Assembly: GCA_963716525.1 (NCBI GenBank)
Contig: OY970315.1
Coordinates: 3,238,154 to 3,302,153 of the forward strand
Direction of reading: 5' to 3'
Source of the DNA: an uncultured Actinomycetes bacterium
Lineage (GTDB): Bacteria > Actinomycetota > Acidimicrobiia > IMCC26256 > PALSA-610
DNA: 64,000 nt
In this document: piece by piece, positions 6,145-55,827 of the stretch
Numbering within the stretch: position 1 is the stretch's first letter
Layout of the letters: each line of letters begins with the position of its first letter
Position numbers and translations under genes: made by a program
Notes under the pieces: model-generated
What the model was told of the DNA's origin: nothing
The model's input: only the letters and a program-made list of their open reading frames with translations
The model's database searches: none

Positions 6145-6759
6145 ATCGCTGCAGAGGATGCCCGGATCAACGAACGGATTCGTGCCCGTTCGGTCCGTCT
6201 GATCGGCAGTGCCGGTGAACAGCTCGGCGTGGTCGACACGCCGAAGGCGCTGTCGATAGCCCGTGAGGCCGGCCTCGATCTCGTCGAGGTCGCCGCCAAC
6301 GCCGAACCACCGGTCGCCCGGATCATGGACTTCGGCAAGTACCGCTACGAGCAGGACCAGAAGCGCAAGGAGAGCCGCAAGAAGACCTCGAACGTCATCA
6401 TCAAGGAGATGAAGTTCCGGCCCAAGATCGACGAGCACGACTACACCACCAAGATGAAGCACGTCGAGCGCTTCCTCCAGGAGGGGTCGAAGGTCAAGCT
6501 CACGATCATGTTCCACGGTCGGGAGATGGCCCACCCCGAGCTCGGCCGCCGCATCCTCGAGCGGGTCGCGGATCAGGTGAAGGAGTTCGCGGTCATCGAG
6601 TCCCACCCCCGCCAGGACGGCCGCAACATGACGATGGTCCTCAACGCCATCCGCAAGCCCAACGTCCGGCGCCCGAAGGCGCCGGCGGCAGCACCCCAAG
6701 CGGCAGCACCCCAAGCGGCAGCACCCCAAACGGCACCGCCCGCAGCCGCGACCGGCTGA
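6145..6759 (+). CDS. infC: Translation initiation factor IF-3, probable ATC start
   Basis: INERIRARSVRLIGSAGEQLGVV...LDLVEVAANAEPPVARIMDFGKYRYE is canonical IF-3. There is no in-frame ATG/GTG/TTG near the conserved N-terminus. ATC 6145 is preceded by AAGGGAG (6128-6134). The N-terminus IAAEDARINERIR matches the I-x-A-E-x-R-I-N-x-R-I-R pattern I recall for other actinobacterial IF-3s. Confidence 0.85.
   Translation: MAAEDARINERIRARSVRLIGSAGEQLGVVDTPKALSIAREAGLDLVEVAANAEPPVARIMDFGKYRYEQDQKRKESRKKTSNVIIKEMKFRPKIDEHDYTTKMKHVERFLQEGSKVKLTIMFHGREMAHPELGRRILERVADQVKEFAVIESHPRQDGRNMTMVLNAIRKPNVRRPKAPAAAPQAAAPQAAAPQTAPPAAATG
6685..6729 (+). repeat. Perfect 15-bp x3 in-frame tandem repeat in the IF-3 C-terminal tail
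   Basis: gcggcagcaccccaa is repeated three times head to tail and encodes (AAAPQ)3. Confidence 0.95.
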
Positions 6760-6809
6760 CGCACCACACCCCACACACCCCGCACAACCGACGACGGAGA
6801 GCGCCGTCC

Positions 6810-7004
6810 ATGGCCAAGATGAAGACGAACCGCAGCGCCGCCAAGCGCTTCAAGATCACCGGCACCGGTCTGATCCGGCGCCGCCAGGTGAACCGCCACC
6901 ATTTGATGGAGCACAAGCCCACGAAGCGCACGCGCCGGCTCGACGGCGAACGCACCGTCGAGGGCAAGCACCGGCGGCACGTCCACAAGCTGCTCGGCAA
7001 CTAG
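6810..7004 (+). CDS. rpmI: 50S ribosomal protein L35
   Basis: [20 protein letters not shown]..., 64 aa, between infC and rplT. Confidence 0.95.
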
Positions 7005-7077
7005 CCCGGTCCGCACTCCGTCGCAATCGCGCCATCCCCGCCGCGCAAGGTCGCGGCTTCGAAGGAGACCGATTTCC

Positions 7078-7441
7078 ATGGCACGCGTCAAGCGTTCCGT
7101 CAACAGCAAGAAGGGCCGCCGCAAGATCCTGGCTGCCGCGAAGGGTTACAACGGGTCGCGTAGCCGTCACCTGCGGGCGGCGAACGAGCAGGTGATGCAC
7201 TCGGGCAAGTATGCCTTCCGCGACCGCCGGGCGCGCAAGGGCGACATGCGCAAGCTCTGGATCGTGCGGATCAACGCGGCGTGCCGCGAGCACGACCTCA
7301 GCTACTCGCGGTTCATCGCGGGCCTGCCGCGCGGCCGAGGTCGACGTCGACCGCAAGATGCTCGCCGACCTTGCAGTGCGCGACCCGCAGGTGTTCGAGC
7401 AGCTCGTCGGATTGGCCCGCGGAGCGCTGACCGCAGCTTGA
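7078..7441 (+). pseudogene. rplT: 50S ribosomal protein L20, interrupted by a 1-nt insertion near 7327 (probably a sequence error)
   Basis: [30 protein letters not shown]...[10 protein letters not shown] is in the 7078 frame. The conserved end [37 protein letters not shown] is in the +1 frame (track ORF 7211..7441). Skipping one base at about 7327 restores a full-length L20. Confidence 0.9.
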
Positions 7442-8229
7442 CCGGGCCGGCGCTCGGGGCTCGCCACCGTGAGCTGACCCGCCTGCGTGTGCTCGCACGC
7501 GACCGTTCGGCGCGCGATGCCGCGGCGCTCGTGGTGATCGACGGTCCACGCGCCGTCGACGGCGTGCTCGCCCGCGGCGCGACGATCGAGGCGGTCTACG
7601 TCGACGGCACCGCGCGGGGCGCCGCGGCCCGCGTCGCGGGCCACGCCCGCGAGCGCGGTGTCACGGTCCGTGAGGTTGTGCCGGGGGCGCTCGCGCGGGC
7701 CGGCGAGGTGCGCACGAATGCCGGTGTGATCGCGCTCGCGCGCCGGCCGCCGGTACCCGGTCGCGACACGCTCGCGAGGGGCGCGTGCTGGCTCGTGTGC
7801 ACCGAGATCGGCGATCCCGGCAACCTCGGTGCCCTCGTACGTTCGGCCGAGGCGGCCGGCGCGGCGGGAATCGTCGTGGGGCGCGGTTCGGCCGATGTTT
7901 ACAATCCGAAGTCGGTCCACACGTCGGCCGGGGCCGTGTTCGGGATCACCGTGCTGGAGGACGACATCGTGACCGTGCTGAGCGACCTCGCAACGCGCGG
8001 TGTGCGGCGCGTCGGTGCCGTCGCCCACGGTGGTGTCGCTCCGTGGGATTGTGCCTTCGGCCCTCGGTTGGCGCTCGTGCTCGGTCACGAGACCCGTGGC
8101 ATCGAAGGGCTCGACGTCGACGAGCGGGTCTCGATCCCCATGGCGGGCGCGGCGGAGTCGTTGAACGTCGCCGCCGCCGCGACGGTGCTGCTGTTCGAGG
8201 TGGCGCGCCGCGCCGGGGTGGCGTCGTGA
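7438..8229 (+). CDS. TrmH/SpoU-family RNA 2'-O-methyltransferase
   Basis: TTG 7438 overlaps the L20 stop (TTGA). It carries SpoU motifs [30 protein letters not shown] and [22 protein letters not shown]. In the track it appears fused to L20 only because of the rplT frameshift. Confidence 0.8.
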
Positions 8230-9281
8230 CCGGCACCGGAGCCGCTACGGCCGACGAGCTCGTCGCGCGCGCGAACCAGGCCGCCGCCGGCGGCGAGACC
8301 GCGGCCTCTGCGGCCGCCGAGCTCGCCGCGCTCGCCGACGTCGACCGCGCGTTCGTGAGGGGCACGCTCGCCGAGATCAAGAAGGCGATCAAGGACGTCG
8401 ACCCCGCCGACCGGTCGCGCGTCGGCCAGGCGCTCACCGCGGCCGAGCGGCGGGTGCGTGCCGCGATCGAGGTGCGGCGGTCCGACCTCGCCGAGGGCGA
8501 ACGCGCCGCCGCGGCACGCGACCGCGTCGACCTCACCGCGCTCGGGTCTTCGTACGAGCGCGGGCACCTGCACCCGCTCACGCAGGCCTGGCGCGAGCTC
8601 GAGGACATTTTCTGCGGCCTCGGCTACGAGGTGTATTACGGCCCCGAGGTGGAGGACGACTGGCACAACTTCGAGGCGCTGAACTTCCCGCCCGACCATC
8701 CGGCGCGGGCGATGCAGGACACGCTCTACGTCGACCTCGGCCAGCCCGAGCAGGTGATGCTGCGCACCCACACGAGCCCGTGCCAGATCCGCCTGATGGA
8801 GACGCAGGCGCCGCCCATCTACGCGGTGATGCCCGGCCGCACGTACCGCCGCGAGACGCCCGACGCGCGCCACTCGCCGGTGTTCCACCAGATCGAGGCG
8901 CTCGTGGTCGACAAGGGCATCACGATGGGCGACCTCATGGGCACGATCGACGTGTTCTTCCACGCGCTGTTCGGCGACGTCGAGGCGCGCTTTCTGCCGA
9001 GCTTCTTCCCGTTCACCGAGCCGTCGGCGGAGCTCGCCACGTCGTGCCCGTTCTGCAACAAGGCCGGCTGCCGCACCTGCTCGCACACCGGGTGGATCGA
9101 GCTCGGCGGCTGCGGCATGGTCGACCCCAACGTGTTCGAGGCCGTAGGCATCGACCCCGAGGTGTGGAGCGGCTTCGCGTTCGGCTTCGGCATCGACCGC
9201 ATCCCGCTGCTCCGCAACGAGATCGACACGTTGCACACGTTGCTGTGGGACAACGACATCCGCTTCCTCTCGCAATTCTGA
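8226..9281 (+). CDS. pheS: Phenylalanine--tRNA ligase alpha subunit
   Basis: GTG 8226 with a GTGA overlap. Class II motifs are present: [46 protein letters not shown] and FPFTEPSAE. Confidence 0.93.
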
Positions 9282-15157: not shown

Positions 15158-16204
15158 TTAGCAGGGCTGCCGGGCCGCGGTCGCCACGGGGAGGAACTGG
15201 CGGTGCCAGGCCTCGATCGTCTGCGACGTGGCGAACGTGCTCACCCCGTACTGGTCGCCGGGACTCCGCACGCGACCGTTCGACAGCTGCTGCGATCGCA
15301 GCCACGCGAGCGGCGAGTGGAAGGGACGGGCGCGCTTGGCCGGCGCCGCCTTGTCGCGCCAGCACCGGTTGCCCGGGTCGTAGCCGGCGGCCGTGATCGC
15401 GAGCACCGCGCTCGCGGTCGAGTTCGGGTCGTTCGCGCCGAACGACTGCCATGCACCGGCCCAGTCGTGGAACTGCCCGGCGAGGAACACGAGGCCCTTG
15501 TGCTCGGTTGCGTCGGTCGGTCGCACGCCGGCGGCCACGAGCGCCTCGATCGCGGTCGACGTGGTGTCGACGTCCGCGTCGGTCGAGTGGGAGCTGCCGG
15601 TGTAATCCCAGCCGCCCTGCGCCTGCTGCGCGCGGCGCATCACGTTGACCGTCGCTGCCGAGATCGGCGCGCTCATGCTGCGCAGGGCAAGCGTCGCGTA
15701 GAGCGTGTCGTTGAACGTGCCGTACGTGCCGTTCGACTTCCGGCCGTGCACGACGAGACCGCGCAGGTTCACCCGGCCCCCGTCATGGTCGGGGTCGAAG
15801 TGCGACGGATTCAGGCCCAGGGGCTTCACCACGAGCACGATCACCTTCGCGGCCTGCCCGGCGCTGACGCCGCCGTCGACCAGATCGTCGATGTAATGCA
15901 GGGGCGAATGGCCGTGGGAGACGGTTGCGTTCACCGCCGCCAGCGCCTGCTTGGTGCTCCAGGCCGCTTGGCGCTGCGCGTTCTCGGCGATGGCCTCGAT
16001 CGCGTCGGGCGTCTCGAAGCCGGCGAAGCCGGCAAGCTCGAAGCCGCCGTTCGCCTGCTGCTTGGTGCGCAACCAGGTGGTGGCGCGCGCCGAGGCGCGC
16101 TTTGACGCCGTGTCGTGCCAGCCCGAGAAGCGGAACGCGCCGAGCCCCAGGACGAGCCCTCCGAGCGCCCCGATCGCCGCGGTCTTGCGGAGTCGACGTT
16201 GCAT
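15158..16204 (-). CDS. Exported prenyltransferase/squalene-oxidase-repeat (alpha/alpha toroid) protein
   Basis: ATG 16204 is preceded by AAGGA. An N-terminal signal/anchor (AAIGALGGLVLGLGAF) is present. Q-x-x-x-G-G-type repeats recur (KQQANGGFE, AQQAQGGWDY, SQQLSNGRV). It is the second gene behind a cobalamin riboswitch. Confidence 0.6.
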   Translation of the reverse strand: MQRRLRKTAAIGALGGLVLGLGAFRFSGWHDTASKRASARATTWLRTKQQANGGFELAGFAGFETPDAIEAIAENAQRQAAWSTKQALAAVNATVSHGHSPLHYIDDLVDGGVSAGQAAKVIVLVVKPLGLNPSHFDPDHDGGRVNLRGLVVHGRKSNGTYGTFNDTLYATLALRSMSAPISAATVNVMRRAQQAQGGWDYTGSSHSTDADVDTTSTAIEALVAAGVRPTDATEHKGLVFLAGQFHDWAGAWQSFGANDPNSTASAVLAITAAGYDPGNRCWRDKAAPAKRARPFHSPLAWLRSQQLSNGRVRSPGDQYGVSTFATSQTIEAWHRQFLPVATAARQPC

Positions 16205-16218
16205 GGTGTTCCTTTCGG

Positions 16219-17184
16219 TCAATCGCCCGCGACGCGCGCGCGGCGACGGTGCGCGGCGGCGATCGCGACGGCGAATGCCGCCACGATCATGCCGAACATG
16301 ATCCAGACGGTCGGCGATGTGCCGGACGCCGAGTGCACGGTGGGAGGGGCGGCCGCGAGGCGGCCCGTGCTCACGCCCGGTCCGGCGCGTGCCCCCGAAG
16401 AAGGTGGTGGCGCGCTCGTCGCGATCGTGGTCGCGCCGCGCCCGGCTGCGCTCGATGGCGACGCTGTGGACGTCGTCGCGCCGGACTTCTTGGAATGCGC
16501 GTTCGAGGAGAGCGCCGTCGACGACGGTGCCGGCGGCCGGCTCGTCCCGGTGCCTCCCGGCCGCGATCCCTCTCCGTGCACGAGCGGCGCGGTGGTCGGC
16601 GAACGGCCGGGCGTGGTGGTGCGCGGCGCGCTCGTGGGCGGTGCGGGCACCGTCGTCGTGGACAGTGGCGGCGGCGCGGGGAAGAATCGGGCGAGCGGCA
16701 CGTAGGTGGGTGTGCTGCCCGTGCCCCAGCGCCAGCCCTCGATGTCACCGTCGTGTACCTGCGTCGCGCCCGCGCCGGCACGCCAGGTGGTGAACGACGT
16801 GGTGCCCCTAGTGGCCCGGGAGTACGACCAGTAGTCGGGGTCCGCGCACGTGAGGCATGTGGCGTCGTCCGGGCAGCCGAAGTGCGTCCCGCCGATGTCG
16901 AGTGCGCACACCGCGCCGCCGATGCCGCCGAAGCTCCGCACCGTCGGTGCGAACCCGGCCGAACGCAGCGCGTCGATGCCCGTGATCGATCCGCTGAACG
17001 TGATCCCGACGCGCCTCACCGTGCCGTTGCCCTCGTCCACGACGACGCCGGCGCGGGCCGTCCCAGTCTGGGCCCTTGCAGCCTGGGCCGTTGCCGTCTG
17101 GGCCGGCGCCGCGTTCGCACCGGCCGCGGTCAGCGCGGTCAGGGCGAGCAACGCGACGATGCCGGCGAGGAGCCGTTGCACCAT
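16219..17184 (-). CDS. Exported DUF4430 (transcobalamin-like C-terminal domain)-like protein with a Pro/Thr/Ser linker and C-terminal membrane anchor
   Basis: ATG 17184 lies 8 nt after GGAGG. A signal peptide (LLAGIVALLALTALTAAGANA) is present. The domain pattern is VVVDEGNG...ITGIDALRSAG...DYWSYSRA...VHDGDIEGWRW. A long P/T/S-rich spacer and a terminal TM segment (IMFGMIVAAFAVAIAAA) follow. It lies directly downstream of a cobalamin riboswitch. Confidence 0.55.
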   Translation of the reverse strand: MVQRLLAGIVALLALTALTAAGANAAPAQTATAQAARAQTGTARAGVVVDEGNGTVRRVGITFSGSITGIDALRSAGFAPTVRSFGGIGGAVCALDIGGTHFGCPDDATCLTCADPDYWSYSRATRGTTSFTTWRAGAGATQVHDGDIEGWRWGTGSTPTYVPLARFFPAPPPLSTTTVPAPPTSAPRTTTPGRSPTTAPLVHGEGSRPGGTGTSRPPAPSSTALSSNAHSKKSGATTSTASPSSAAGRGATTIATSAPPPSSGARAGPGVSTGRLAAAPPTVHSASGTSPTVWIMFGMIVAAFAVAIAAAHRRRARVAGD

Positions 17185-17194
17185 GCCCATCACC

Positions 17195-17400
17195 TCCGTC
17201 GGACCCCGTCTCCTCGAGGGTCCTGGCCGAGCCGCCTCACGGCGGCGTGTACGGCAGCGGCGCATGCACTGGCGCCGCCGAGAGGATGGGCATCCTGGCT
17301 CGCGTTCCCGGGGCCGTGCCTCGGTGACGCTTACAGTTGCGGGTCAGCGCCGGACTCGCACCGGCTTCCCCCGGCCCGTCGTGCGACGGACCCACACCAG
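17195..17400 (-). promoter_or_regulatory. Cobalamin (B12) riboswitch
   Basis: The minus strand reads GGGAAGCCGGTGCGAGTCCGGCGCTGACCCGCAACTGTAA (17370-17331), which is the conserved GGGAA..GGTG..TCC..GC.G.CCCGC.ACTGT core. A B12-box-like AGCCAGGATGCCC is at 17300-17288. GCCAGTG is at 17273-17267. A CCTCT anti-SD (17286-17282) could pair with the GGAGG SD (17197-17193). Confidence 0.8.
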
Positions 17401-17555
17401 GCCTCCGAGCCTGGCGTGATCACTCCGGCCCGGACACTACCGTGCCGCCGCCCGCGGTGCGTCACCGTCGACCTCCGTTGATCGGGATAGCGTGCGCGGC
17501 GCGACGCCGATCACGGCGCCGCCGGCGCGTCTGCGCCACGGGCAAGGGGGCATTC

Positions 17556-20309
17556 ATGGTGGGCCTGCGACCTTCGGGTCACCGTTGGTGCTGCGCGCTC
17601 GGCGCCGCCGCCCTCACCCTCGCCGGCATGCTCACCACGGCGGCGACCACCGCGCAACCCGCGTCGGGCGCGCCTGGGGCGACGCCGGCTCTCGCGACCG
17701 GTCCGTTCACCGTCGACATGACGAACCGAGAGGACGTGCGCCAGCTCTTCGATGTCATGCAGGCCGACACGGCCGGCGTCACCGACGGTTGGAGCGGCGG
17801 CAGCTTCGCGCCGGGATGCGTACCCGGCAGCGACACGCCGCAGTTCCTCGCCGCGGCCCTGACGCGCCTGAACTACTACCGGGCGATGGCGGGCGTGCAG
17901 CCCGTCACGTTCAAGGGCACCGACAACCTGCATCCCGACGCGGGCACGTCGGCCGACACGAACAACGCGCTGGCCCAGGCCGGGGTGCTCATGGAGTCGG
18001 CGAACCCCGTGCTCGTGGCGGGCACGGGTGGCACGCACGGGCCGCCGCAGATCTTCAACGGCCAGCCGTTGGACTGCTGGACCCAGCAGGCTTCCGACAC
18101 GACGTTCAACTCGAACCTCGCGGGTGGCTCGCCGATCGGCGCCGGTACGTCGTTCGACGCGCACCAGATCGACAACTGGATCAACGACGGCGAGTGCTCG
18201 ATCGCGGGCGGCTGCGGATCCGACAGCAGCGCGGTGCTCGGCCACCGGCGGAACATGCTCGATCCGACGAAGTTCGAGATGGGGCTGGGCGCGGCCGTCG
18301 GTCCGGTGGGTGGCGCGTCGAACGCGGCGCTGTTCTTCCCCTCTGACCGATCGGTGCAACCCGCGCGTGACGGCTTCTGGGCCTGGCCGCCGAAGGGATT
18401 CGTGCCCTATCAGGTGGTGTTCAAGCGTTGGTCGTTCAGCATGACCGGTGCCGACTTCACCAACGCCACCGTCACCATGCAGCGCAACGGCGTGGCCATT
18501 GGCGCGACGATCGACTGCGGAGCTGCCTGCCCCAACTTCTCCGGTCCGGGGATCACGTGGAGTGTGGCCGGTTTCCCGCTCGACGGCACCGACTGGCCGA
18601 AGCCCACCGCGGACGACACGTACCACGTGACGGTGGCCAACGTGGTCGTGAACGGCGGCGCACCACAGAATTTCACGTACGACGTGACGGTGATCGACCC
18701 GTCAAAGGGTGACGCGGCGCATGCGCCGAGCGGTACGGCGAGCCCTCCGGTGGGCCAGAACAGCACGTATACGGTGCCGGCGATCCCGAACGCCACGGGC
18801 TACCAGTGGCGCACCACGCCGCTCTCGAACTCCACGTTCAACGACGGGGCCGAGAACGGCACGGGAAGCTGGACCTTCGCAGGCGGCGCCTATGACCCGA
18901 TTCAGACCACCGACGTCGCGAGCGGCACGCATGCGTTCCAGCTCGCGCAGTCGGACTTCAACATCCCCGACACGCTCGCGTTGCATCGCACGCTGCTCCC
19001 GAACGCGAACAGTCAGCTCAGCTTCGACAGCAAGGTTGTGAGCTTCACGCATCTCCACGCGAACGTGCAGGTGTCGACCGACGGTGGGAATACGTGGGGC
19101 GCGCCGCTCTACGAGCAGCATGACGGGGACGAGGCATCGTTCTCGCACAAGACGCTGTCGCTGGCGGCGTATGCCGGCCAGCAGATCATGCTCCGGTTCG
19201 CGGTCGGCTACGACTTCAACGGCGGCGTGTGCGAGTGCGTGTCGAGCGCCTGGCACTTCGACAACGTGGCGCTGAGCAACATCCAGGAGGTCGGCACGCC
19301 GGTGCTGAGCGGGGTAGGCGCGAACCCGTCGTTCGCGTTCAATCCGCCGTCGGCGGGCACGTACGCGATCGAGGTGCGGCCGCAATACTCCGGTCCGGAA
19401 TTCGGGGTGTTCAGTGCCACCACGCAGGTGACGGCCACGGGTGCCGCGGCGGTGCCGACGGTGGTCGGCCTGGTGGACGCGGCGCAGAACGCGTACGTGA
19501 AGTCGGGCACGCTCGCGAGCCCGTATGCGAAGGTCGCGGCGAACGCCACCGCGATCTCCGTGGGTGCTGATGCCACGAACGGCGCAGTGGTGGGGGTGAT
19601 CGCGAACGGCGGCAGCGCCTACGTGCGTGTGGGCAACGGTGCGTTCAGCCGGATCGCGGCGGGCGCGACGGCGATCTCCGTGGGTGCTGATGCCACGAAC
19701 GGCGCAGTGGTGGGGGTGATCGCGAACGGCGGCAATGCCTACGTGCGGGTGGGCAACGGTGCGTTCGCGAGGATCGCGGCGAACGCCACGGCGATCTCCG
19801 TGGGTGCTGATGCCACGAACGGGCCGGTGGTGGGGGTGATCGCGAACGGTGGCAGTGCCTATGTGCGGGTGGGGAACGGCGCGTTCGTGCGGGAGTCGGG
19901 GAATGCCACGGCGGTGTCGGTGGGTACCGACGCGACGCACGGCATGATTCTCGGTCTGGTCGCGAACGGCGGGATTGCGTACGTGAAGCAGGGCACGCCG
20001 GCGAGTGCGTGGGTGAAGGAGGCGTCGAACGCCACGGCGATCTCGGTGGCGTCGGATGCCACGCACAACGCGCTCGTTGGGGTGGTGGCGAACGGCGGCA
20101 CGTTGTATGTGAAGCAGGGCACGCTTGCGAGTGCGTGGGTGAAGGAGGCGTCGAACTCCTCGATCGTGAGCGTGGCGTCCGACGCCACGAGCGGCGCGCT
20201 GCTGGGCGCGACCGCGAACGGAGCGAGCATCTACGTGAAGCAGGGTTCGCTCACCGGCGCGTTCTCCAAGCAGACCGGTTCGGGCACCGCGGTCTCGGTG
20301 GCCGGCTGA
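17556..20309 (+). CDS. Large secreted multidomain protein: CAP/SCP (PR-1-like) domain, central jelly-roll-like domains, C-terminal 7-repeat beta-propeller-like module
   Basis: ATG 17556 follows AAGGGGG. A signal peptide (ALGAAALTLAGMLTTAATTAQPASG) is present. CAP motifs are LNYYRAMAGV and LGHRRNMLDPTKFEMGLG. The C-terminus carries about 40-aa repeats ATAISVGADATNGAVVGVIANGGSAYVRVGNGAF... x6-7. Confidence 0.7.
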   Translation: MVGLRPSGHRWCCALGAAALTLAGMLTTAATTAQPASGAPGATPALATGPFTVDMTNREDVRQLFDVMQADTAGVTDGWSGGSFAPGCVPGSDTPQFLAAALTRLNYYRAMAGVQPVTFKGTDNLHPDAGTSADTNNALAQAGVLMESANPVLVAGTGGTHGPPQIFNGQPLDCWTQQASDTTFNSNLAGGSPIGAGTSFDAHQIDNWINDGECSIAGGCGSDSSAVLGHRRNMLDPTKFEMGLGAAVGPVGGASNAALFFPSDRSVQPARDGFWAWPPKGFVPYQVVFKRWSFSMTGADFTNATVTMQRNGVAIGATIDCGAACPNFSGPGITWSVAGFPLDGTDWPKPTADDTYHVTVANVVVNGGAPQNFTYDVTVIDPSKGDAAHAPSGTASPPVGQNSTYTVPAIPNATGYQWRTTPLSNSTFNDGAENGTGSWTFAGGAYDPIQTTDVASGTHAFQLAQSDFNIPDTLALHRTLLPNANSQLSFDSKVVSFTHLHANVQVSTDGGNTWGAPLYEQHDGDEASFSHKTLSLAAYAGQQIMLRFAVGYDFNGGVCECVSSAWHFDNVALSNIQEVGTPVLSGVGANPSFAFNPPSAGTYAIEVRPQYSGPEFGVFSATTQVTATGAAAVPTVVGLVDAAQNAYVKSGTLASPYAKVAANATAISVGADATNGAVVGVIANGGSAYVRVGNGAFSRIAAGATAISVGADATNGAVVGVIANGGNAYVRVGNGAFARIAANATAISVGADATNGPVVGVIANGGSAYVRVGNGAFVRESGNATAVSVGTDATHGMILGLVANGGIAYVKQGTPASAWVKEASNATAISVASDATHNALVGVVANGGTLYVKQGTLASAWVKEASNSSIVSVASDATSGALLGATANGASIYVKQGSLTGAFSKQTGSGTAVSVAG
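19551..19910 (+). repeat. Three near-identical 120-bp tandem units inside the propeller-repeat coding region
   Basis: The units start at 19551, 19671 and 19791 with gcgatctccgtgggtgctgatgccacgaac.... Units 1 and 2 are identical over their first 64 nt. Further diverged units of 120-129 bp continue to about 20300. Confidence 0.9.
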
Positions 20310-26726: not shown

Positions 26727-27804
26727 ATGGATCGCGGTGGCGCGCCCTTCCCCCCGGCGCTCGCGGCGGTCGCGAGCCGTGCCGAGGCGCATGTGGCCGC
26801 GCTCCTCGACGCCCAGCGCGCGGTGTGGACACCGATCGACGGCCGGCTGTCCGCGCCGATCGACGCGGTCGCCGCGCTCGTGGCCGCGGGCGGCAAGCGG
26901 ATCCGCCCCGCGCTCTGCGCCGTGGCCTACGCCGGGGTTGGCGGCGAGGGCGGTATCGCCGCACCCGAGGTGGTCGCGGCCGGTGCCGCGCTCGAGCTGC
27001 TGCACACGTTCGCGCTCGTGCACGACGACGTGATGGACGGCTCGGAGACGCGCCGCGGCGTCGATGCCGTGCACCGGGCGTTCGTGCGGCGCCACGAGGA
27101 GTCCGAGTGGCACGGCGAATCGCGCCGCTTCGGCGAGGGCATGGCGATTCTCGTGGGCGACATCGCCTACGTGCTCGCCGACGTGCTGCTGCGCGACGCT
27201 CCACCCGCGGTGCATGCGTTGTGGGACGAGCTGCGCCTCGAGCTGTGCATCGGTCAGTCGCTCGATCTCATCGGTGCGGCCGAGGCCACATTTGAGCTCG
27301 AGCTCGCGCAGCGCATCGTGTCGTACAAGTCGGCGAAGTACACGGTCGAGCGACCGCTGCATCTCGGCGCGATGCTGGCCGGCGCCGGACCGTCGGTGGT
27401 CGCGGCGCTGTCGCGCGTGGGGCTCCCGCTCGGGCAGGCGTTCCAGCTGCGCGACGACGAGCTCGGCGTCTTCGGCGACGAGGTGATCACCGGCAAGCCG
27501 GTCGGCGACGATCTGCGCGAGGGCAAGCCCACCCCGATGCTCGCGATGGCACACGAGCGTGCCGCGCGCGTGCCCGGAGCGCCGCGCGTCCTCGCGATGG
27601 TGGGCACGCGCGATCTCGGTGAGCGCGAGATCAAGGAGATCCAGGACGTGCTCATCGACACCGGCGCGCTCGCCGCGATCGAGGACGAGATCGAGCGGCT
27701 CGTCACCGAGGCGGTCGTGGCGATCGACCGAGCGCCACTCGAGCGGGGCGCGGCCGCGCTGCTCACCGACCTCGCCGCGCTACATCGCGTGGCGCGACCA
27801 CTAG
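26727..27804 (+). pseudogene. Polyprenyl (geranylgeranyl) diphosphate synthase, 1-nt insertion near 27780 removes its stop
   Basis: The first and second Asp-rich motifs are present (LLHTFALVHDDVMDGSETRRG, GQAFQLRDDELGVFGD). The expected C-terminus YIAWRDH* is in the +1 frame with TAG at 27802-27804. As sequenced, the ORF reads through into the ABC ATPase. Confidence 0.8.
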
Positions 27805-28803
27805 TGGTGGCGCCCCACGAATTAGCGCGCGAGAGGAACGCGGCGCCGGCCGCGTCGGGTGCGGGCACCGCCCGGGATGACGCCGCGGTGGTGGCCGACC
27901 GGCTCGAGAAGCGCTACGGCGGCACCCGTGCGGTCGACGGGATGCACTTCGACGTCGCCCGGGGCGAGATCTTCGCGCTCGTCGGCCCGAACGGCGCCGG
28001 CAAGACCACGACGGTGGAGATGCTCGAGGGCTACCGCCGTCCCGATGCCGGCACGGTGCGCGTGCTCGGTCTCGACCCGATCGACGACGGGCGGGCGTTA
28101 CGGCCGCGCATCGGCGTGATGCTGCAGGAGGGCGGGCTCTATCCAGGCCTGCGGCCGCTCGAGGTGCTGCGCCTGTTCGCCGCCTTCTACGAGAATCCCG
28201 AAGCGCCCGAGGCGCTGCTCGACCGGGTGGGCCTGCTCGAGGCCCGGCGCACGGTCGTACGGCGGCTTTCGGGCGGCCAGAAGCAGCGCCTCTCGCTCGC
28301 CTGCGCCCTCGTCGGCCGGCCCGAGCTCGTGTTCCTCGACGAGCCGACCGCGGGCATGGATCCGCACGCCCGCGCCACCACCTGGGACCTCGTGCGCGAG
28401 CTGCCGCGCCCGGGGCACCACGATCGTGGTCACCACGCACCTTCTCGCCGAGGCCGAGCAACTCTGCGACCGGGTCGCGATCGTCGTGGCCGGCCGGGTC
28501 GCCGCGCTCGGCACGCCGCGCGAGCTGATGCGAAGCGCCCGGGTGCATCGCGTCACGTTCACCGCGTCCGCGACGCTCGACACGCACGAGCTCGCCCGCG
28601 CGCTCGGTGTCGACGACACGGCCGTCGCGTCGACCGGTCGGGAAGGCGAATACGAGGTGCACACGCCGGGCACGCCGGCGCTCGTCGCCGCGCTCGCGAA
28701 CCATCTGTGTGCGATCGACGTGCGCCTCGGTTCCCTGCAGGCCAACGAGCAGTCGCTCGAGGCGGTGTTCCTGCAGATCACCGCGGAGGACGCAACGCAA
28801 TGA
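27804..28803 (+). pseudogene. ABC transporter ATP-binding protein (ABC-2/DrrA-like), 1-nt insertion near 28404
   Basis: Walker A GPNGAGKTT, signature LSGGQKQR and Walker B LVFLDEPTAGMD are in one frame. RARGTTIVVTTHLLAEAEQLCDRVAIV... is in the +1 frame (track ORF 28426..28803). The start is ambiguous (GTG 27804, 27807 or 27888). Confidence 0.85.
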
Positions 28804-29048
28804 GCCCCTCGGGGCGCGAGTGGCGGCCGGTGGGCCGCCCGATTGCGCACGCGGTCGCGGCCGCCGACGAGCGGGGGTGGACATGAGCCCCTCGGGGCGC
28901 GAGTGGCGGCCGGTGGGCCGCCCGATTGCGCACGCGGTCGCGGCCGCCGACGAGCGGGGGTGGACATGAGCCCCTCGGGGCGCGAGTGGCGGCCGGTGGG
29001 CCGCCCGATTGCGCACGCGGTCGCGGCCGCCGACGAGCGGGGGTGGAC
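28800..29048 (+). repeat. Three perfect 83-bp tandem units, each carrying a 28-codon mini-ORF (MIRU-like intercistronic element)
   Basis: The unit is ATGAGCCCCTCGGGGCGCGAGTGGCGGCCGGTGGGCCGCCCGATTGCGCACGCGGTCGCGGCCGCCGACGAGCGGGGGTGGAC, at 28800, 28883 and 28966. By my base-by-base comparison the three copies are identical. The mini-ORFs are 28800..28886, 28883..28969 and 28966..29052. Each encodes MSPSGREWRPVGRPIAHAVAAADERGWT and each is joined to its neighbour by an ATGA overlap. Confidence 0.95.
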
Positions 29049-29789
29049 ATGAACACCACCGCGGTCGCTGCGCAGGCCCGCACCGAGATCATGCTGTCGC
29101 TGCGCCGCGGCGAGAGCCTCGTGGTGACGCTCGCGATCCCGCTGGGTGTGCTGCTGTTCTTCTCCAAGATCGACACGTCGGTGCCCACCGGTTACAAGCA
29201 CGCGGTCGACTTCCTCGTGCCCGGTGTGCTCGCGCTCGCGATCATGTCGGCGGCGATGGTGTCGCTCGGCATCGCCACCGGTTTCGACCGGCGGTACGGC
29301 GTGCTCAAGCGCCTCGGCTCCACGCCGCTGTCGCGCGGGCAGCTGCTCGTTGCGAAGACGATCACGGTGCTCGTGCTGGAGGTGATCCAGTTCGTGCTGA
29401 TCATCCTTGTGGGGATCGCGCTCGGCTGGCACGCCACGCTCGGCATCGTCGGCGCGATCGGCCTCTCGCTGCTCGGCACGATCGCATTCGCGGGGCTCGG
29501 CATGCTGATGGCGGGCACGCTGCGTGCCGAAGCGACGCTCGCGCTCGCGAACGGGCTGTTCCTCGTGCTGTTGTTCCTCGGCGGCATGGCGTACCCGCTG
29601 GAGAAGCTGCCGTCGTTCCTGCGCGACCTCGCCCGCGCCCTCCCCGCCGCCGCGCTGTCCGAGACGCTGCACGGCGCGCTCGGCGGGCGGGCCGGCGCCG
29701 GTTTCCCCACCGGCAGCCTCGTGGTGCTCTGCGTGTGGGCCGTCGTGCTGCCCACGCTCGCGATCCGCTGGTTCCGCTGGGAGGAGTGA
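29049..29789 (+). CDS. ABC-2 type transporter permease
   Basis: The 246-aa product from ATG 29049 has six predicted TM helices and the typical ABC-2 layout. It follows the ATPase. Confidence 0.85.
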   Translation: MNTTAVAAQARTEIMLSLRRGESLVVTLAIPLGVLLFFSKIDTSVPTGYKHAVDFLVPGVLALAIMSAAMVSLGIATGFDRRYGVLKRLGSTPLSRGQLLVAKTITVLVLEVIQFVLIILVGIALGWHATLGIVGAIGLSLLGTIAFAGLGMLMAGTLRAEATLALANGLFLVLLFLGGMAYPLEKLPSFLRDLARALPAAALSETLHGALGGRAGAGFPTGSLVVLCVWAVVLPTLAIRWFRWEE

Positions 29790-34523: not shown

Positions 34524-35958
34524 CTGATTCACGATCTCGACACAGAGGTCGGTGCCGGCGCCGCGCGCGCCGAGCCGCTCGAGCTTGCGCTGTACGCCCG
34601 CGACGCTGGTGTCAGCTCGGGCGCGGCCGCGGCGGTGTGCTTCCCCCGTGACGCCCGCGAGGTCGCGGCGTGCGTGCGCGCGGCGCGCCGCCACGGTGTG
34701 CCGTTCGTGGCGCGCGGGAGCGGCACGGGCCTCGCCGGCGGCGCGACGCCGGTCGACGAGCCGCTCGTGATCGTGACCACCCGGATGAACCGGGTCCTCG
34801 CCGTCGACGCCGCCGCGCGCACCGCGGTCGTGGAGCCGGGCGTGCTGAACCTCGACCTCTCGCGGGCCGTCGCCGGGCTCGGCCTGCACTACGCGCCCGA
34901 TCCGTCGTCGCAGGCCGCCTGCACGATCGGGGGCAACGTCGCCACCAACGCCGGTGGGCCCCACTGCCTGGCGTCGGGCGTCACCAGCGCGCACGTGCTC
35001 GCGGTCGACGCGGTGCTCGCCGACGGCTCCGAGGCCCGTCTCGGCGGCGTGGTGCCCGACACGCCCGGCTACGACCTGCGCGGCGTGTTCGTGGGCAGCG
35101 AGGGAACCATGGGCATCGCCACCGCGGTCACGGTACGGCTGTTGCCCGCACCCCCGGCGGTGCGCACGCTCTTGTGCGACTTCACGAGCATCGAGGACGC
35201 GGCGGCCACGGTGAGCGGGATCATCGCGGCCGGGCTCGTGCCCGCGGCGCTGGAGATGATGGACGCGGAGATCACGAGAGCGGTGGAAGACTTCGTGGGC
35301 GCGGGCTTCCCTCGGGACGCCGCGGCGGTGCTGCTCGTGGAGGTCGACGGGCTTGCGGGCGGCGTCGCTTCCGAGGTCGACGTGGTCGACCGGGTGGCGC
35401 GCGCGACACGGCGCACGCGCGGTGCGCGTGGCCCGCGACGCGGCCGAGCGCGACCTGCTGTGGAAGGGGCGGAAGTCGGCCTTCGGCGCGATCGCCCGAA
35501 TCGCGCCCGACTACTACCTGCACGACGCGGTGGTGCCCCGCACCAAGCTCGTCGACGTGCTGCGAACGGTGTACGCGGTCGCGGCCGAGCAGCGGCTCAC
35601 GATGATGAACGTCTTCCATGCCGGCGACGGCAACCTCCACCCGCTGATCGTGTTCGACGGCCGCGAGCCCCACGTGTGGCCGCGCGTGCACGACGCCGGC
35701 TCGCGCATCCTCGCCGCGTGCATCGAGGCCGGGGGCGTGCTGTCGGGCGAGCACGGCGTGGGGCTGGAGAAGCGCGACCTCATGCCGCTGCAGTTCTCGG
35801 CCGACGACCTCGCCGCGCAGGGCCGGCTCGCCGACGCGTTCGATCCCGACGGTGTGGCGAACCCGCAGAAGGTGCTGCCGGCCGGCTCCCGGTGCGGGGA
35901 GGTCGTCCGAGGGCGGCAGCGGCGCGACGGCGCGGCCGCAGCCGGCGCATGGATCTGA
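34524..35958 (+). pseudogene. glcD: Glycolate oxidase FAD-linked subunit GlcD, 1-nt insertion near 35406; start unresolved
   Basis: The FAD-binding PCMH domain (VCFPRDAREVAACVRAARRHGVPFVARGSGTGLAGG) is in one frame. The C-terminal part HGARAVRVARDAAERDLLWKGRK...NVFHAGDGNLHPLI...GEHGVGLEK is in the +1 frame (track ORF 35353..35958). There is no in-frame ATG/GTG/TTG between 34467 and about 34630. Confidence 0.85.
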
Positions 35959-36987
35959 TGATCGCCAGCGCGCTGACCCGGGCCGCGGTGCCCGTGGTCG
36001 ACGCGCTGCGCGCCACCGGCGATGCCGTCGTGATGCGCGGCGCGGGTACGCACGCCGAGGTCGGCAACCCGGTCGTCGCCACGCGCACGCGCGAGGTGCG
36101 CATCCCTGCTGGTGTCGTCACGTACGACCCCGACGACATGACGGTGACGGTGCTCGCGGGAACCACGGTCGCGCGAGCTCGACGCGGTGCTCGCCGCGGC
36201 CGGCCAGGAGGTGCCGCTCGATCCGCGCGATCGGGTCGCCACGGTCGGCGGCGTGCTCGCGGCGGGTCTGTCGGGCATCCGCCGCCTGCGCCACGGACCT
36301 GTGCGCGACACGCTGCTCGAGGTCAGGTTCGTCGACGGCCGGGGCACGCTCGTGAAGAGCGGCGGCCCGGTGGTGAAGAACGTCACCGGCTACGACCTGC
36401 CGCGGCTGCTCGTGGGATCGCTCGGCACGCTCGGCGCGCTGGTGCAGGTGACGTTGCGCTGCCGGCCCCGTGCCGCGCACACGGCGTGGTACCGCGTCGA
36501 GCGCGACGACGCCGATGCGGTGCGCGCCGGGCTCTACCGCCCGTCGTCGGTGTTGTTCGACGGCCACGCCACGCACGTGCTGCTCGAAGGGCACACGCCC
36601 GACCTGGCCGATCAGGCCGCGGCCGCGCAGCTCGGTGCCTCGGCCGGCGGCGCCCCCGCGTTGCCCGACGGTCCGCACCGTGGTCGCATCAGTGTGCCGC
36701 CGGGTCATGTCGCCCCGGCCGGTCGCGCGCTGTCGGCCGTGGCGCCCGCGGTGCGCTGGTGCGCCGAGCTCGGCGTGGGCACGGTGCACGTCGCGTGCGA
36801 CGATGCCGGCGACCTCGAGCGCGCACGGGACGTGGCCACCGCGTGCGACGGCTGGCTGCTGCGCGAGGCCGGCGCCCCGGGCGTCGACGGCTTCGGCATC
36901 ATGCTGCCCAACTCCGGATTGACCGCCCGGGTGAAGGCCGCCTTCGACCCCGACGGCCGCTTCGCGCCAGGCCGGTTGCCGCAGTGA
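35949..36987 (+). pseudogene. glcE: Glycolate oxidase FAD-binding subunit GlcE, 1-nt insertion near 36174
   Basis: MDLMIASALT...VVMRGAGTHAEVG...YDPDDMTVTVLAGTTVA is in one frame. ELDAVLAAAGQEVPLDP...VKNVTGYDLPRLLVGSLGTLG... is in the +1 frame (track ORF 36187..36987). Confidence 0.8.
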
Positions 36988-42613: not shown

Positions 42614-45035
42614 CTACGGCAAAACCGGAAGCGCGGCCGGTTGGCGGCCGATCGTGACCGGCACCGGGCTCCCGGCGTCGCGGGCCAGCAGGCCGTCGTC
42701 GTCCACCGGGCGGAGGCGCCGGCCGACCGTCTGCGTGCGGCCGTACAGCGTGGTGCGCTGGGCGAGCGTGCGCCCGAGCGGCTCGACGATCGCCGCGAAC
42801 TGCGTGTCGTCGAGCTCCTGGCCGTGGTGCGCGCCAGCAGCGCGCGAGATGTTCTCGTCCATCAGCGTGCCACCGAGATCGTTGGCGCCGGCCCGCAGGA
42901 TCTGCTGCGCGCCGCGCACCCCGCACTTCACCCACGACGCCTGCACGTTGTCGATGAGGCCGCGATAGGCGATGCGGCCGACCGCATGCATCAGCAGCAC
43001 CTCACGGAACGTCGGCCCGGGACGCGCCTTGTGCTGCAAGAAGATCGGCGTGGCCATGTGCACGAAGGGCAGCGGCACGAACTCCGTGAACCCTCCGGTC
43101 TCCTTCTGCAGCGCCCGGGTCCGCAACAGATGGTTCGCGACGTGGTGCGGACGTTCGACCGAGCCGAACATGATCGTGATGTTCGAGCGCAGACCGATCG
43201 AGTGCGCCGCCCGATGGGCCTCGAGCCATTCCTCGGTGTTCACCTTGTCGGGGCAGAGGATCGCGCGCACGTCGTCGTCGAGAACCTCGGCGGCGGTGCC
43301 CGGCAGCGTGGCCAGGCCGGCCTCACGCAGCGTCGCGAGATAGTCGGGCAGCGGCATGCCGAGCCGGCGCGCGCCCTCGGTGACCTCGAGCGCGGTGAAG
43401 CCGTGCACGTGGATGGTGGGCGCCACCGCCTTGATCGCGACCACCACCTGCCGGTAGAAGTCGCCGTCGAAGTCGGGGTGGATGCCGCCCTGCAGGCACA
43501 CCTCGGTGGCGCCGCAGTCGACCGCCTCGACCACACGCCGCTGGATCTCGTCGAGGTCGAGCAGATACGGATTGCCGCGCAAGTTCAACGACAGCGGACC
43601 CTTGCTGAACGCGCAGAACTTGCACTTGAACGTGCACACGTTCGTGTAGTTGATGTTGCGGTTGCGGACGAACGTGACCTCGTCACCGACGGTCTCGGCG
43701 CGCAGCTCGTCGGCGAGCGCGCACACTGCCTGCACGTCGGTGCCGCGTGCCTCGAGCAGCGTGACGATCTCGCGATGGCCGACCTCCTGGCCGGCGCGCA
43801 CTCCGTCGACCACCTCGCGCACCCGCCCCGACACCGCACGCGGGCGCGAGCCGCGGGCGAGCGGCGGTGGACACGTCGATCACCGGCGGTGGCGGGTCGT
43901 CGCCGCCCGAGGCCCAATGGTCGTCGCGCGCGAGGCCCTCACTGTCGCTGCGCACCAGCACGCTGTTCGCGAGCTCGGGCTCGATCCAGTGCGCCGCGTC
44001 GCGCACGAACTCGGGGTGCACGGTGAGGCGGGGCGCGAGCACATGGCCGGCCGCCTCGGTGGCGGCGCGCAGCGTGTCGAGCGCCGGCCAGGGCCGTTCG
44101 GGATTGACGTGGTCGACGGTCACCGGCGACACGCCGCCCCAGTCGTCGATGCCGGCGGCGAGCAGCGCGGCGAGCTCGTCGACGTCGGACAGGTTCGGCG
44201 GGGCCTGGAGATGGATGTCGGGCGGCAGGATCAGGCGCGCGGCGGCGACCGACCAGAGGTACTCCTCGCGGTCGCACGGCGGCACGTCGCGCATCGCGGT
44301 GCCCAGCTTGGGCAGGAAGTTCTGGACGATCACCTCCTGCACGTGGCCGTACTCCGCGTGCGAGCGCGCGATCGCCACGAGCGCGTCGACGCGCTCGGCA
44401 CGTGTCTCGCCGATACCCACGAGGATGCCCGTGGTGAACGGCACGCGCGCGCGTCCGGCGGCGTCGAGCGTGGCGAGCCGGCGCGCCGCGGTCTTGTCGG
44501 GCGCGCGGTGGTGCGGACCGCCCGGCTCGTGGAGGCGGTCGGCGAGGCTCTCGAGCATCATGCCCTGGCTCGGCGACCAGCGGCGCAGGCGGCGCAGCTG
44601 GTGCTCGTCGAGCGCGCCGGGGTTGGCGTGGGGCAGGAGGCCGGTCTCCTCCACCACCAGGCGCGCCATCGCGACGAGGTAGTCGACGGTGTCGGCGTAA
44701 CCCCGGTCGGCGAGCCAATCGGCCGCCTGCGTGTAGCGCACCTCCGGGGCTTCGCCCAGCGTGAACAGCACCTCGTGGCAGCCCATCGCCGCGCCGCGCC
44801 GGGCGATCCCGAGCACGTCGTCGGGCGTGAGGTAGGGCGACTCGATGCGCGCCGGCGCCTTGGCGAAGGTGCAGTAGCCGCAGCGGTCGCGGCACAGCAT
44901 CGTGAGCGGCACGAAGACCTTGGGTGAGAACGTGACCCGTGCACCGAACGCGTGGTCGCGCACGGCGGCCGCCTCGGGCATCAGCACCGCGGCGGGATGG
45001 TCGACGAGCTCCCGGAACTGCGAAGCGGTGAGCAT
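42614..45035 (-). pseudogene. fbiC: FO synthase FbiC (fused CofG-CofH, F420 biosynthesis), frameshift in the interdomain linker (about 43840-43875)
   Basis: The CofG half starts at ATG 45035 (radical-SAM CRDRCGYCTF). The CofH half is in the next frame (CTFKCKFCAF). The CofG frame continues as an Arg-rich nonsense tail to 43683. The CofH frame has a TGA just upstream of GTG 43834. Confidence 0.85.
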
Positions 45036-47656: not shown

Positions 47657-48079
47657 GTGAAGACACTGGCCAACGTTCTCTGGTTCGTGTTGGCAGGGTT
47701 CTGGCTCGCGATCGCGTACCTCGTTGCCGCGGTGGTCATGGTGATCACGATCATCGGCATCCCGTTCGCGATCGCGGCGATGCGCATGGCATCACTTGTG
47801 ATCTGGCCGTTCGGCCGGACCGTCGTGAAGGACCCGAACCGTGGCGCGGTTGCCGCAGTGGGCAACCTGCTGTGGATCGTCCTCTGCGGCTGGTGGCTGG
47901 CCCTCGCGCACATCGTCAGCGGCATTCTGTTGTGCATCACGATCATCGGCATCCCGTACGGCGTCGTCAACTTGAAGTTGATCCCGCTCGCGTTCGCGCC
48001 CTGGGGTAAGCGCGTGGTGACCACCGCCGAGGCGGTTGCGGGCTCACTCACGCCGGTGGCGGTCGTACCCTCGAAGTGA
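47657..48079 (+). CDS. YccF-like inner membrane protein (DUF307 repeat)
   Basis: GTG 47657. Two copies of the motif are present (ITIIGIPFAIAAMRMA and ITIIGIPYGVVNLKL). Confidence 0.75.
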   Translation: MKTLANVLWFVLAGFWLAIAYLVAAVVMVITIIGIPFAIAAMRMASLVIWPFGRTVVKDPNRGAVAAVGNLLWIVLCGWWLALAHIVSGILLCITIIGIPYGVVNLKLIPLAFAPWGKRVVTTAEAVAGSLTPVAVVPSK

Positions 48080-48098
48080 CCGGCGTGCGTAACGCCGG
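48080..48098 (+). terminator. Stem-loop immediately after the yccF-like stop (no U-tract)
   Basis: CCGGCGT-gcgta-ACGCCGG, a 7-bp perfect stem starting 1 nt after TGA 48077-48079. Confidence 0.3.
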
Positions 48099-48099
48099 C

Positions 48100-48325
48100 T
48101 CAGCGGTTGTGATGGTGTGGTTGGCGCGGCGGGCTTGGTGGAGTTGGTGGATGATGATTCCGGTGGCGTCGTGCGGGATGGCCAGGCATGGATCCACGAC
48201 ATGATCTCCTCCCAGCTGATCGTGATGGTGACGTGGGGGGCAACGCCTGCTTCGAGGGGCAGGTCTTCGTGGTCGAGGAGGTGGTCGTAGGTTTTCGCCG
48301 ATGGCCGACCCGCCGGGCTCCTATG
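48100..48325 (-). pseudogene. Possible relic of a DUF222/HNH-endonuclease-type gene (fragment only)
   Basis: The segment is locally less GC-rich. One minus frame reads KTYDHLLDHEDLPLEAGVAPHVTITISWEEIMS... This resembles the LL..G.LP..GG.RPH..VT....L block as I recall it from DUF222 proteins. There is no start codon and the fragment is bounded by a TAG. Confidence 0.25.
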
Positions 48326-49035
48326 CGTTCCTCGAGTTCAACGCGCCGCTGTCCGGCGCGCGTGCCGACCGGCTCGCCGCCGCCCTCGCTGCGACCGGCC
48401 CCCGCTCGGTGCTCGACGTCGGGTGCGGATGGGGCGAGCTGCTGCTGCGCATCGCGAGTGCAGCGCCGCGAGCCGCCGCGGTGGGCGTCGACCTCAACGC
48501 CGCGCTGCTCGACCACGCGCGCCGCAACGCGGCCGACCGCGGGCTGGCGGATCGCGTTCAGTTCGTCGAGGCGAGCGCTCCACTCGACGGCGCACCGGTC
48601 GATCTCGCGGTGTGTATCGGGGCCGATCATGCCTATGGCCGGCAAGCCGACGCGTTGGCGGTGCTGCACCGGCTCGTCGCACCCGGCGGTCGTGTGCTGT
48701 TCGGGACGGGCTTCTGGGAAGCTCGCCCCACGGCCGAGCAGGCGGCGGTACTCGGCATGCAACCGGATTCACTCGAGGATCTCGACGGTCTCGTCGACCT
48801 CACGATCCACGCCGGGTTCCGGCCGTTGCGCATCGAGACGGCGAACCGCGACGAATGGGAGACGTTCGAGTCGGGCTACCTCGGCGACTGGGAGCATTGG
48901 CTGCACATGCATCCCGGAGATCCCGGCGCGCCCGAGATCGCACGGAAGGCCGACGAACATCGCAAGGGCTGGTTGGCGGGATACCGGGGCGTGCTCGGGT
49001 TCGCGTACCTGACGCTCGGCCGCGTGCGCACCTGA
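48301..49035 (+). CDS. Class I SAM-dependent methyltransferase
   Basis: 244-aa ORF with SVLDVGCGWGELLL (motif I), VDLNAALLDHARRNA and LVAPGGRVLF. Confidence 0.8.
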   Translation: MADPPGSYAFLEFNAPLSGARADRLAAALAATGPRSVLDVGCGWGELLLRIASAAPRAAAVGVDLNAALLDHARRNAADRGLADRVQFVEASAPLDGAPVDLAVCIGADHAYGRQADALAVLHRLVAPGGRVLFGTGFWEARPTAEQAAVLGMQPDSLEDLDGLVDLTIHAGFRPLRIETANRDEWETFESGYLGDWEHWLHMHPGDPGAPEIARKADEHRKGWLAGYRGVLGFAYLTLGRVRT

Positions 49036-49053
49036 CGACTCCAGTGTGCAGGA

Positions 49054-55773: not shown

Positions 55774-55827
55774 CGTGCGTACAGTACCGACCGGCCGTGA
55801 GCAGAGCGAACGAGGGGTAGGACGCAC

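Follow-up and report, generated by a model that had tools for sequence, protein, structure and literature searches.

Three identical 83-bp units form a MIRU-like array between two ABC transporter genes of an uncultured actinobacterium

In a stretch of 64,000 nucleotides from an uncultured actinobacterium (assembly GCA_963716525.1, contig OY970315.1, positions 3,238,154 to 3,302,153), hereafter called the window, we analyzed a perfect tandem repeat that separates the ATPase gene from the permease gene of an ATP-binding cassette (ABC) transporter and whose layout recalls the interspersed repetitive units of mycobacteria (MIRUs). Pfam searches assigned a polyprenyl synthetase domain to the gene upstream, ABC_tran together with a weak DrrA1-3_C match to the ATPase, and ABC2_membrane to the gene downstream of the array. 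The array is intercistronic, and its short open reading frames (mini-ORFs) are oriented like both transporter genes. The features of the locus, numbered from the first letter of the window, are as follows.

27804..28803, + strand: ABC-transporter ATPase; its GTG start codon (27804) and the stop of the polyprenyl synthase share the overlap TAGTG, and a 1-bp insertion breaks the gene
28784..28789, + strand: GGAGGA in the C-terminal codons of the ATPase, 10 nt upstream of ATG 28800; function inferred
28800..28882, + strand: repeat unit 1 (83 bp), with its ATG (28800) overlapping TGA 28801-28803, the stop of the ATPase; mini-ORF 28800-28886
28873..28877, + strand: GGGGG run at unit positions 74-78, a candidate Shine-Dalgarno (SD) sequence by sequence and spacing; SD function inferred
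28883..28965, + strand: repeat unit 2, identical to unit 1; mini-ORF 28883-28969
28966..29048, + strand: repeat unit 3, identical to unit 1; mini-ORF 28966-29052, whose TGA 29050-29052 overlaps ATG 29049
29049..29052, + strand: right-hand ATGA, by sequence comparison a 4-nt partial fourth copy
29049..29789, + strand: intact ABC-2 permease of 246 aa; its closest homologues share 91% identity

Tandem Repeats Finder (TRF) described the array at 28800-29052 with a period of 83, 3.0 copies, 100% matches, 0 indels and a score of 506, making it the sole perfect long-period array of the 64-kb window. By direct string comparison units 1 to 3 are identical base by base, and the 249 bp from 28800 to 29048 correspond to three times the 83-bp unit. 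The repetition extends by 0 nt to the left of the three units and by 4 nt (ATGA) to the right, so that the ATGA at 28800-28803 and the ATGA at 29049-29052 form a tetranucleotide direct repeat around an insert of 3 x 79 nt. Each unit starts with ATGA and contains a 28-codon ORF with the translation MSPSGREWRPVGRPIAHAVAAADERGWT followed by a stop. Every TGA is preceded by an A, giving ATGA at 28800, 28883, 28966 and 29049; the first two mini-ORF stops overlap the ATG of the next unit, and the third overlaps the ATG of the permease, a start that is backed by full-length alignment to relatives (residues 1-246). Removal of the 249 bp in silico gave ...GACGCAACGCAATGAACACC... / ...CGCAATGAACACC..., a clean ATGA stop/start overlap from which the permease starts ATGAACAC, the same as in the related locus L012. 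The initial annotation, made from the letters alone, had described three perfect units, a stop-start chain of identical ATGA-started mini-ORFs and a normal overlap once the 249 bp are taken out; TRF and string comparison, translation and the in silico removal confirmed these observations.

The unit length is 3n-1 (83 is 2 mod 3), and because of this length and the three copies the TGAs at 28801, 28884 and 28967 occupy all three frames, each overlapped by an ATG. Any plus-strand frame that enters the array meets one of these TGAs as its first stop. The GGGGG run recurs at 28956-28960 and 29039-29043 and lies each time 5 nt upstream of the next ATG, that of the permease included, which makes it a candidate SD for the next cistron and for the permease. 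The GGAGGA motif is likely the native SD of the permease, which would now serve mini-ORF 1. We found no promoter-like or terminator-like sites in 28300-29500, so that nothing in the sequence argues against a single transcript across the array; a role of the array itself as terminator or promoter was rejected on the same result.

The host is an actinobacterium but not a mycobacterium, and probably belongs to the Acidimicrobiia. The best homologues of the permease are proteins from metagenome assemblies with 88-91% identity, the named matches being Acidimicrobiia or Actinomycetota metagenome-assembled genomes, and the G+C content of the window is 71.6%. For comparison we used the same operon in six relative lineages (loci L001-L007 and L009-L015). 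The repeat is absent from all six, and ATPase and permease genes are adjacent or overlapping throughout, with the following junctions.

L001/2, L009-11 and L014/15: -4 NTGA overlap (GTGA, GTGA and TTGA)
L003-5: 7-nt spacer
L012/13: 10-nt spacer
L006/7: 28-nt spacer

Among the relatives, the closest (permease identity 91% and 82%) and one at 73% share the -4 overlap, and an NTGA overlap is most likely the ancestral junction. An nhmmer search of 116 kb of the relatives' DNA detected no unit-like sequence; TRF likewise reported no comparable tandem arrays in this DNA. Since the relatives lack the repeat, the 249 bp are a lineage-specific filled site with ATGA on both sides.

Gene order around the locus is conserved over about 20 kb (window positions about 21000-41600) with L012 and L014 (permease identity 73-78%). 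It comprises COX15/CtaA, a 5'-3' exonuclease, SDR, FxsA, SCP2, polyprenyl synthase, the ABC ATPase and the permease, followed by redoxin, UbiA, cupredoxin, Cpn10, an Rv0495c-like gene, GlcD/E/F-like genes and a LOG-like gene. The ABC pair is thus placed among respiratory and quinone-related genes.

Taken together, we favor with moderate confidence the interpretation that the array is a real, lineage-specific intercistronic minisatellite that acts in the way a MIRU locus is thought to act. In an ancestor, the ATPase stop and the permease start would have overlapped as NTGA. A 79-nt sequence of unexplained origin would then have been placed between two copies of this ancestral tetranucleotide, through an insertion that duplicated 4 bp of the target or through an event mediated by microhomology, and the resulting 83-bp block (79 nt plus ATGA) may have expanded to its three copies by slippage during replication or by unequal recombination. 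Such an array could be tolerated because each unit would be a self-contained termination-reinitiation relay: its ATG overlaps the upstream TGA, 28 stop-free codons follow, and the 3n-1 length lets its own TGA overlap the next ATG, with a G-rich SD-like run 5 nt before. Ribosomes ending on the ATPase would terminate and reinitiate through three throw-away mini-cistrons until they reach the permease start, and their passage would keep the very GC-rich RNA unfolded. The GGGGG before each downstream ATG and the GGAGGA before ATG 28800 fit such a relay function. The net effect is likely close to neutral, or else permease translation would fall modestly, and more so with more copies, while the 28-aa peptide itself is probably without function.

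Several results weigh against this interpretation. None of the searches retrieved a donor or another copy of the 79 nt, which leaves the origin of the insert unexplained. With 0.08, the mini-ORF has a lower codon score than 98.9% of true in-frame 27-codon windows, and 10% of off-frame windows score at least as high. Moreover, the coupling geometry has a chance of about 0.25 once an ATGA-bounded duplication is given (the stop-free share of 27-codon windows in this DNA, 76.5%, multiplied by 1/3 for a period of 2 mod 3), and the geometry alone is for this reason no proof of selection. Finally, about four of about 18 syntenic genes in 20 kb carry frameshifts, so that the consensus sequence may be imperfect, the copy number in particular.

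The search for further copies of the unit covered the window, genome and metagenome collections, mobile elements and proteins. Within the window, a half-unit search allowing 3 mismatches returned the three known copies only, and blastn-short and nhmmer on the masked window gave chance-level matches only. The best partial match scored 30.2 bits, a value reached by 30/100 codon-block shuffles, and 74/100 of such shuffles equalled or exceeded the 28.2 bits of a 33/38 match at 43835-43872. With a genome of 4.4 Mb holding about 40-50 loci, as for MIRUs, about 0.6 further loci would be expected in 64 kb, so the missing second copy is uninformative at this scale. Beyond the window, the 24-mer at the 5' end of the unit and an internal 25-mer had 0 exact matches in 185,579 species-representative genomes. 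The 21-mer at the 3' end had one exact match in the metagenome collection (L008, positions 713-733). As the contig concerned (ERZ1034375 NODE-29625, 1.5 kb) is AT-rich and otherwise dissimilar, we rejected the match as fortuitous; it shows that 21-nt exact matches arise by chance in this collection. Distant BLASTN searches against plasmids and phages found nothing. A read-through of three units visits all three frames, and its translations on both strands were compared with about 5.8 billion protein clusters, those of the plus strand also exhaustively with 1.84 billion representatives; none of the six-frame unit proteins had a homologue at E <= 0.001 in these sets.

Of the source genome itself, these searches covered the 64 kb of the window. 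In another reading, the array belongs to a dispersed mobile family: the genome would carry this MIRU-analogous element at tens of sites, insertion would target NTGA overlaps and create a 4-bp duplication, and strains would differ in copy number. This idea would extend the minisatellite interpretation rather than exclude it. The contrast between filled and empty sites with a flanking tetranucleotide repeat is as known for MIRUs, and the architecture is the same as at the senX3-regX3 MIRU locus. However, the two exact unit patterns are missing from the species genomes, the metagenome scan yielded the chance match only, plasmids and phages as well as the 116 kb from relatives contributed nothing, no called protein resembles any unit frame, and the unit is without terminal inverted repeats. 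A dispersed family is thus a possibility that we regard as rather doubtful. Still somewhat less probable is its more far-reaching form, in which Acidimicrobiia-like actinobacteria would harbor a so far undescribed family of small mobile elements, the array being one of its loci, and this family would have evolved the MIRU strategy independently and with unrelated sequence. Such an element would insert into NTGA overlaps with a 4-bp duplication, bring its own SD, ATG and 3n-1 frame, and subsequently expand as a variable number tandem repeat (VNTR); ribosomes arriving in any frame, the frameshifted reading of the ATPase included, would be handed on to the permease.

It can also be assumed that no insertion took place at all and that an ancestral 79-nt spacer was duplicated, its ATGA ends serving as slippage microhomology, with no mobility involved. 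Junction spacing has indeed been variable in evolution (-4, +7, +10 and +28 nt), a 4-nt microhomology at the duplication boundaries is generally typical of slippage, and the missing donor copy would be in line with this scenario. On the other hand, the closest relatives at 91% and 82% permease identity and the relative at 73% have the -4 overlap, and no relative has a spacer that is longer than 28 nt or detectably similar to the unit. We therefore consider the duplication of an old spacer unlikely.

The quality of the assembly also has to be considered. GC3 phase (G+C at third codon positions), translations and alignment to the proteins of relatives place a 1-bp insertion (+1 frameshift) in the ATPase gene near 28395-28415, which splits the N-terminal part (in the frame of ORF 26727..28886) from the C-terminal part (in the frame stopping at 28801-28803). 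The text at this site is GAGCTGCCGCGCCCGG, and ...CTGCGCGCCCGG... would restore the conserved ...DLVRELRARGTTIVVTTH... In the sequence as it stands, the upstream frame ends at the unit-2 TGA (28884-28886) and forms a 719-codon ORF (26727..28886) in which polyprenyl synthase is fused to the N-terminal part of the ATPase via two upstream frameshifts; a gene caller would probably report this chimera. The initial annotation had taken TGA 28801-28803 for the ATPase stop while overlooking the frameshift, which is correct in the repaired frame only. Further 1-bp frameshifts were found in the polyprenyl synthase gene (an insertion near 27775, about ten codons before the stop) and in the GlcD-like (about 35387-35404) and GlcE-like (about 36167-36172) genes, each of the latter being split across two frames. 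In total, at least four conserved plus-strand genes within 9 kb are affected, all with intact orthologues in relatives, while seven of the seven minus-strand genes checked are intact.

This pattern suggests indel errors of the assembly consensus, possibly from long reads, rather than biology or pseudogenes, and the ATPase is hence probably intact in vivo. An earlier idea of four frameshifts in one giant flavin adenine dinucleotide (FAD)-oxidase fusion ORF was rejected, since relatives have separate GlcD-, GlcE- and GlcF-like genes; the region contains only two real frameshifts, one in the GlcD-like and one in the GlcE-like gene. A GCCGCGC heptamer common to two frameshift sites was dropped as an error motif because it is not significant in this composition.

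For the array, an indel-prone consensus means that the exact number of tandem copies is uncertain. The true copies could be fewer, different in number or non-identical, as frameshifts in at least four conserved genes are typical of an unpolished consensus and the copy number of tandem repeats is a classic weak point of assemblers. Nevertheless, an assembler cannot invent 79 novel bases absent from all relatives, and the unit-unit junction (…GGTGGACATGAGCCCC…) is required in the reads, which implies at least two copies. At about one indel per 5 kb, 249 bp are moreover expected to be error-free, so that perfect identity is not suspicious in itself. Both the novel bases and the junction must hence be real, whereas the number three may not be, and we judge an artefact of assembly or copy number to be quite improbable. 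The initial claims of perfect identity and of three copies accordingly stand for the sequence as written, with confidence lowered by the ATPase frameshift and the nearby indels.

Regarding composition and folding, the three palindromes named in the initial annotation (GGCGGCC-ggtg-GGCCGCC, a second core and CCCC-tc-GGGG) are all present in the unit, which has a G+C content of 80.7%. The hairpins as such were thus correctly recognized, but they fold no more strongly than shuffled sequence: the minimum free energy (MFE) of the unit is -45.9 kcal/mol compared with a dinucleotide-shuffle mean of -44.1 kcal/mol (z = -0.55), and the array with its flanks reaches -196 kcal/mol over 331 nt (z = -1.49 versus shuffles). 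No Rfam match was obtained in 28500-29300 at E <= 1. Given these unremarkable z-scores and the lack of an Rfam match, the idea of a structured RNA was rejected. The mini-ORF frame shows a gene-like GC3 of 0.96 and the best codon score among the three plus-strand frames, but its G+C at second codon positions (GC2) is 0.70 compared with about 0.48 in real genes, and the peptide has no Pfam match. The same 28-aa ORF is present in all three units, as initially described; without a homologue and with weak codon usage, its peptide appears neither conserved nor convincingly coding, and a real peptide gene was rejected on conservation and codon usage. That the array exists for a functional 28-aa peptide or for a structured regulatory RNA (attenuator, stabiliser or processing site) is consequently very unlikely and weakly refuted, since the gene-like GC3, the best-scoring frame and the large folding energy are offset by the failed homology, Pfam and Rfam searches, the high GC2, a codon score within the off-frame range, z-scores not beyond those of shuffles and the absence of a terminator-like site.

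Several other features were observed elsewhere in the window. The only Rfam match above gathering score is a cobalamin riboswitch (RF00174) on the minus strand at 17268-17410 (49.3 bits, E = 2.6e-9), located within a 1.5-kb stretch (16192-17704) without coding-phase signal. Imperfect 120-126-bp tandem repeats on the plus strand at 19527-20221 (77-86% identity, 1.8-3.5 copies) lie inside a long plus-strand ORF (17328-20309), presumably encoding a repeat-domain protein. In an otherwise densely coding genome, two segments of 1.0-1.6 kb (6679-8251 and 48037-49052) lack GC3 coding periodicity, and neither contains a tRNA or Rfam match; the first begins at a near-perfect 15-bp x 3.4 repeat (6685-6735, unit GCGGCAGCACCCCAA). 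A 12-bp x 5.2 tandem repeat at 56249-56310 (GGACATCGGGCG, 88% matches) falls within a plus-strand coding segment (55742-57484) predicted by a crude coding-phase model. Provided that this is a true gene, a repeated tetrapeptide would be encoded here, as the 12-bp period is a multiple of three.

The present evidence makes the array not very surprising and does not secure more than a one-off duplication in an assembly with errors; the array is best called a single-locus example of a coupling-preserving intercistronic minisatellite in a new host lineage. To our knowledge, the movement of MIRUs and their tolerance within operons have never been resolved, and MIRUs are regarded as a mycobacterial peculiarity. 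An unrelated sequence with the same geometry in another actinobacterial class would point to repeated selection for the 'translational transparency' of intercistronic insertions or, alternatively, imply a wider class of start-codon-targeting mini-elements. The array would also offer a natural series for the decay of reinitiation efficiency along chained -4 overlaps. Its present value is that of a lead for work with the full genome and reads, not of a finding in itself.

Compared with known systems, the array shares its small, GC-rich, palindrome-containing intergenic repeat with miniature inverted-repeat transposable elements (MITEs) and with repetitive extragenic palindromes and bacterial interspersed mosaic elements (REP/BIME), and with MITEs a possible 4-bp target duplication (ATGA), which could also be slippage microhomology. 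It differs from both in that it has no terminal inverted repeats, does not fold beyond shuffles, has no other copies found and is tandem instead of dispersed. The palindromes are internal only, with no pairing between the two ends of the 79-nt insert, and the MITE idea was rejected for the lack of terminal inverted repeats. A REP/BIME-type palindrome does not match the MFE z-score and the absence of further copies, and a conserved small protein gene does not match zero homologues, the missing Pfam domain and the low codon score. With generic VNTRs or minisatellites arising from slipped-strand mispairing, the array has in common perfect head-to-tail copies, boundary microhomology and an intergenic position. 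Here, however, phase and period of the array recreate the ATGA coupling at every unit boundary, whereas most VNTRs are unphased. Termination-reinitiation at NTGA overlaps, 'delivery' upstream ORFs (uORFs) and bicistronic-design cassettes (reviewed in PMC12548453) resemble the array in that a short ORF hands the ribosome to a start at -4 and the SD lies within the upstream ORF. In contrast to them, three putatively coupled relay ORFs are chained here and stem from repeat amplification.

The likeness to MIRUs goes furthest. MIRU hallmarks are intercistronic units of 40-100 bp with an ORF overlapping both neighbours (Delihas 2011, PMC3184786); filled and empty sites show tetranucleotide direct repeats, and about 40-50 loci occur per genome (PMC3184786). 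According to the published model, which our explanation follows, MIRUs insert at start codons, with their ORF coupled at -4 nt and minimal impact on expression (PMC12548453). The array studied here consists of identical, gene-oriented tandem units of this size within an operon, each unit's ORF shares 4 nt with the stop before it and with the start after it, and a filled site with the tetranucleotide at both ends faces empty sites in relatives. The unit length is 3n-1, and the MIRU unit lengths of 77 and 53 are both 2 mod 3, like 83. The MIRU-like architecture proposed in the initial annotation is thus borne out by size, intercistronic position, -4 ORF overlaps and filled and empty sites, and its remark that such elements are undescribed outside mycobacteria agrees with our finding no such description in the searchable, though incomplete, literature. 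Differences to the MIRUs of Supply et al. 1997 are the non-mycobacterial host, probably of the Acidimicrobiia, the single locus known here and the orphan sequence, the latter judged by an exact-match comparison only (24- and 25-mers in the 185,579 genomes). The array works like a MIRU locus in our interpretation but cannot be filed as a MIRU, because its host is not Mycobacterium, its sequence is an orphan, and both its interspersion and its copy-number polymorphism are hypothetical. Its closest parallel is the senX3-regX3 locus of M. tuberculosis H37Rv, which carries 'three identical 77-bp MIRU' (PMC4213456).

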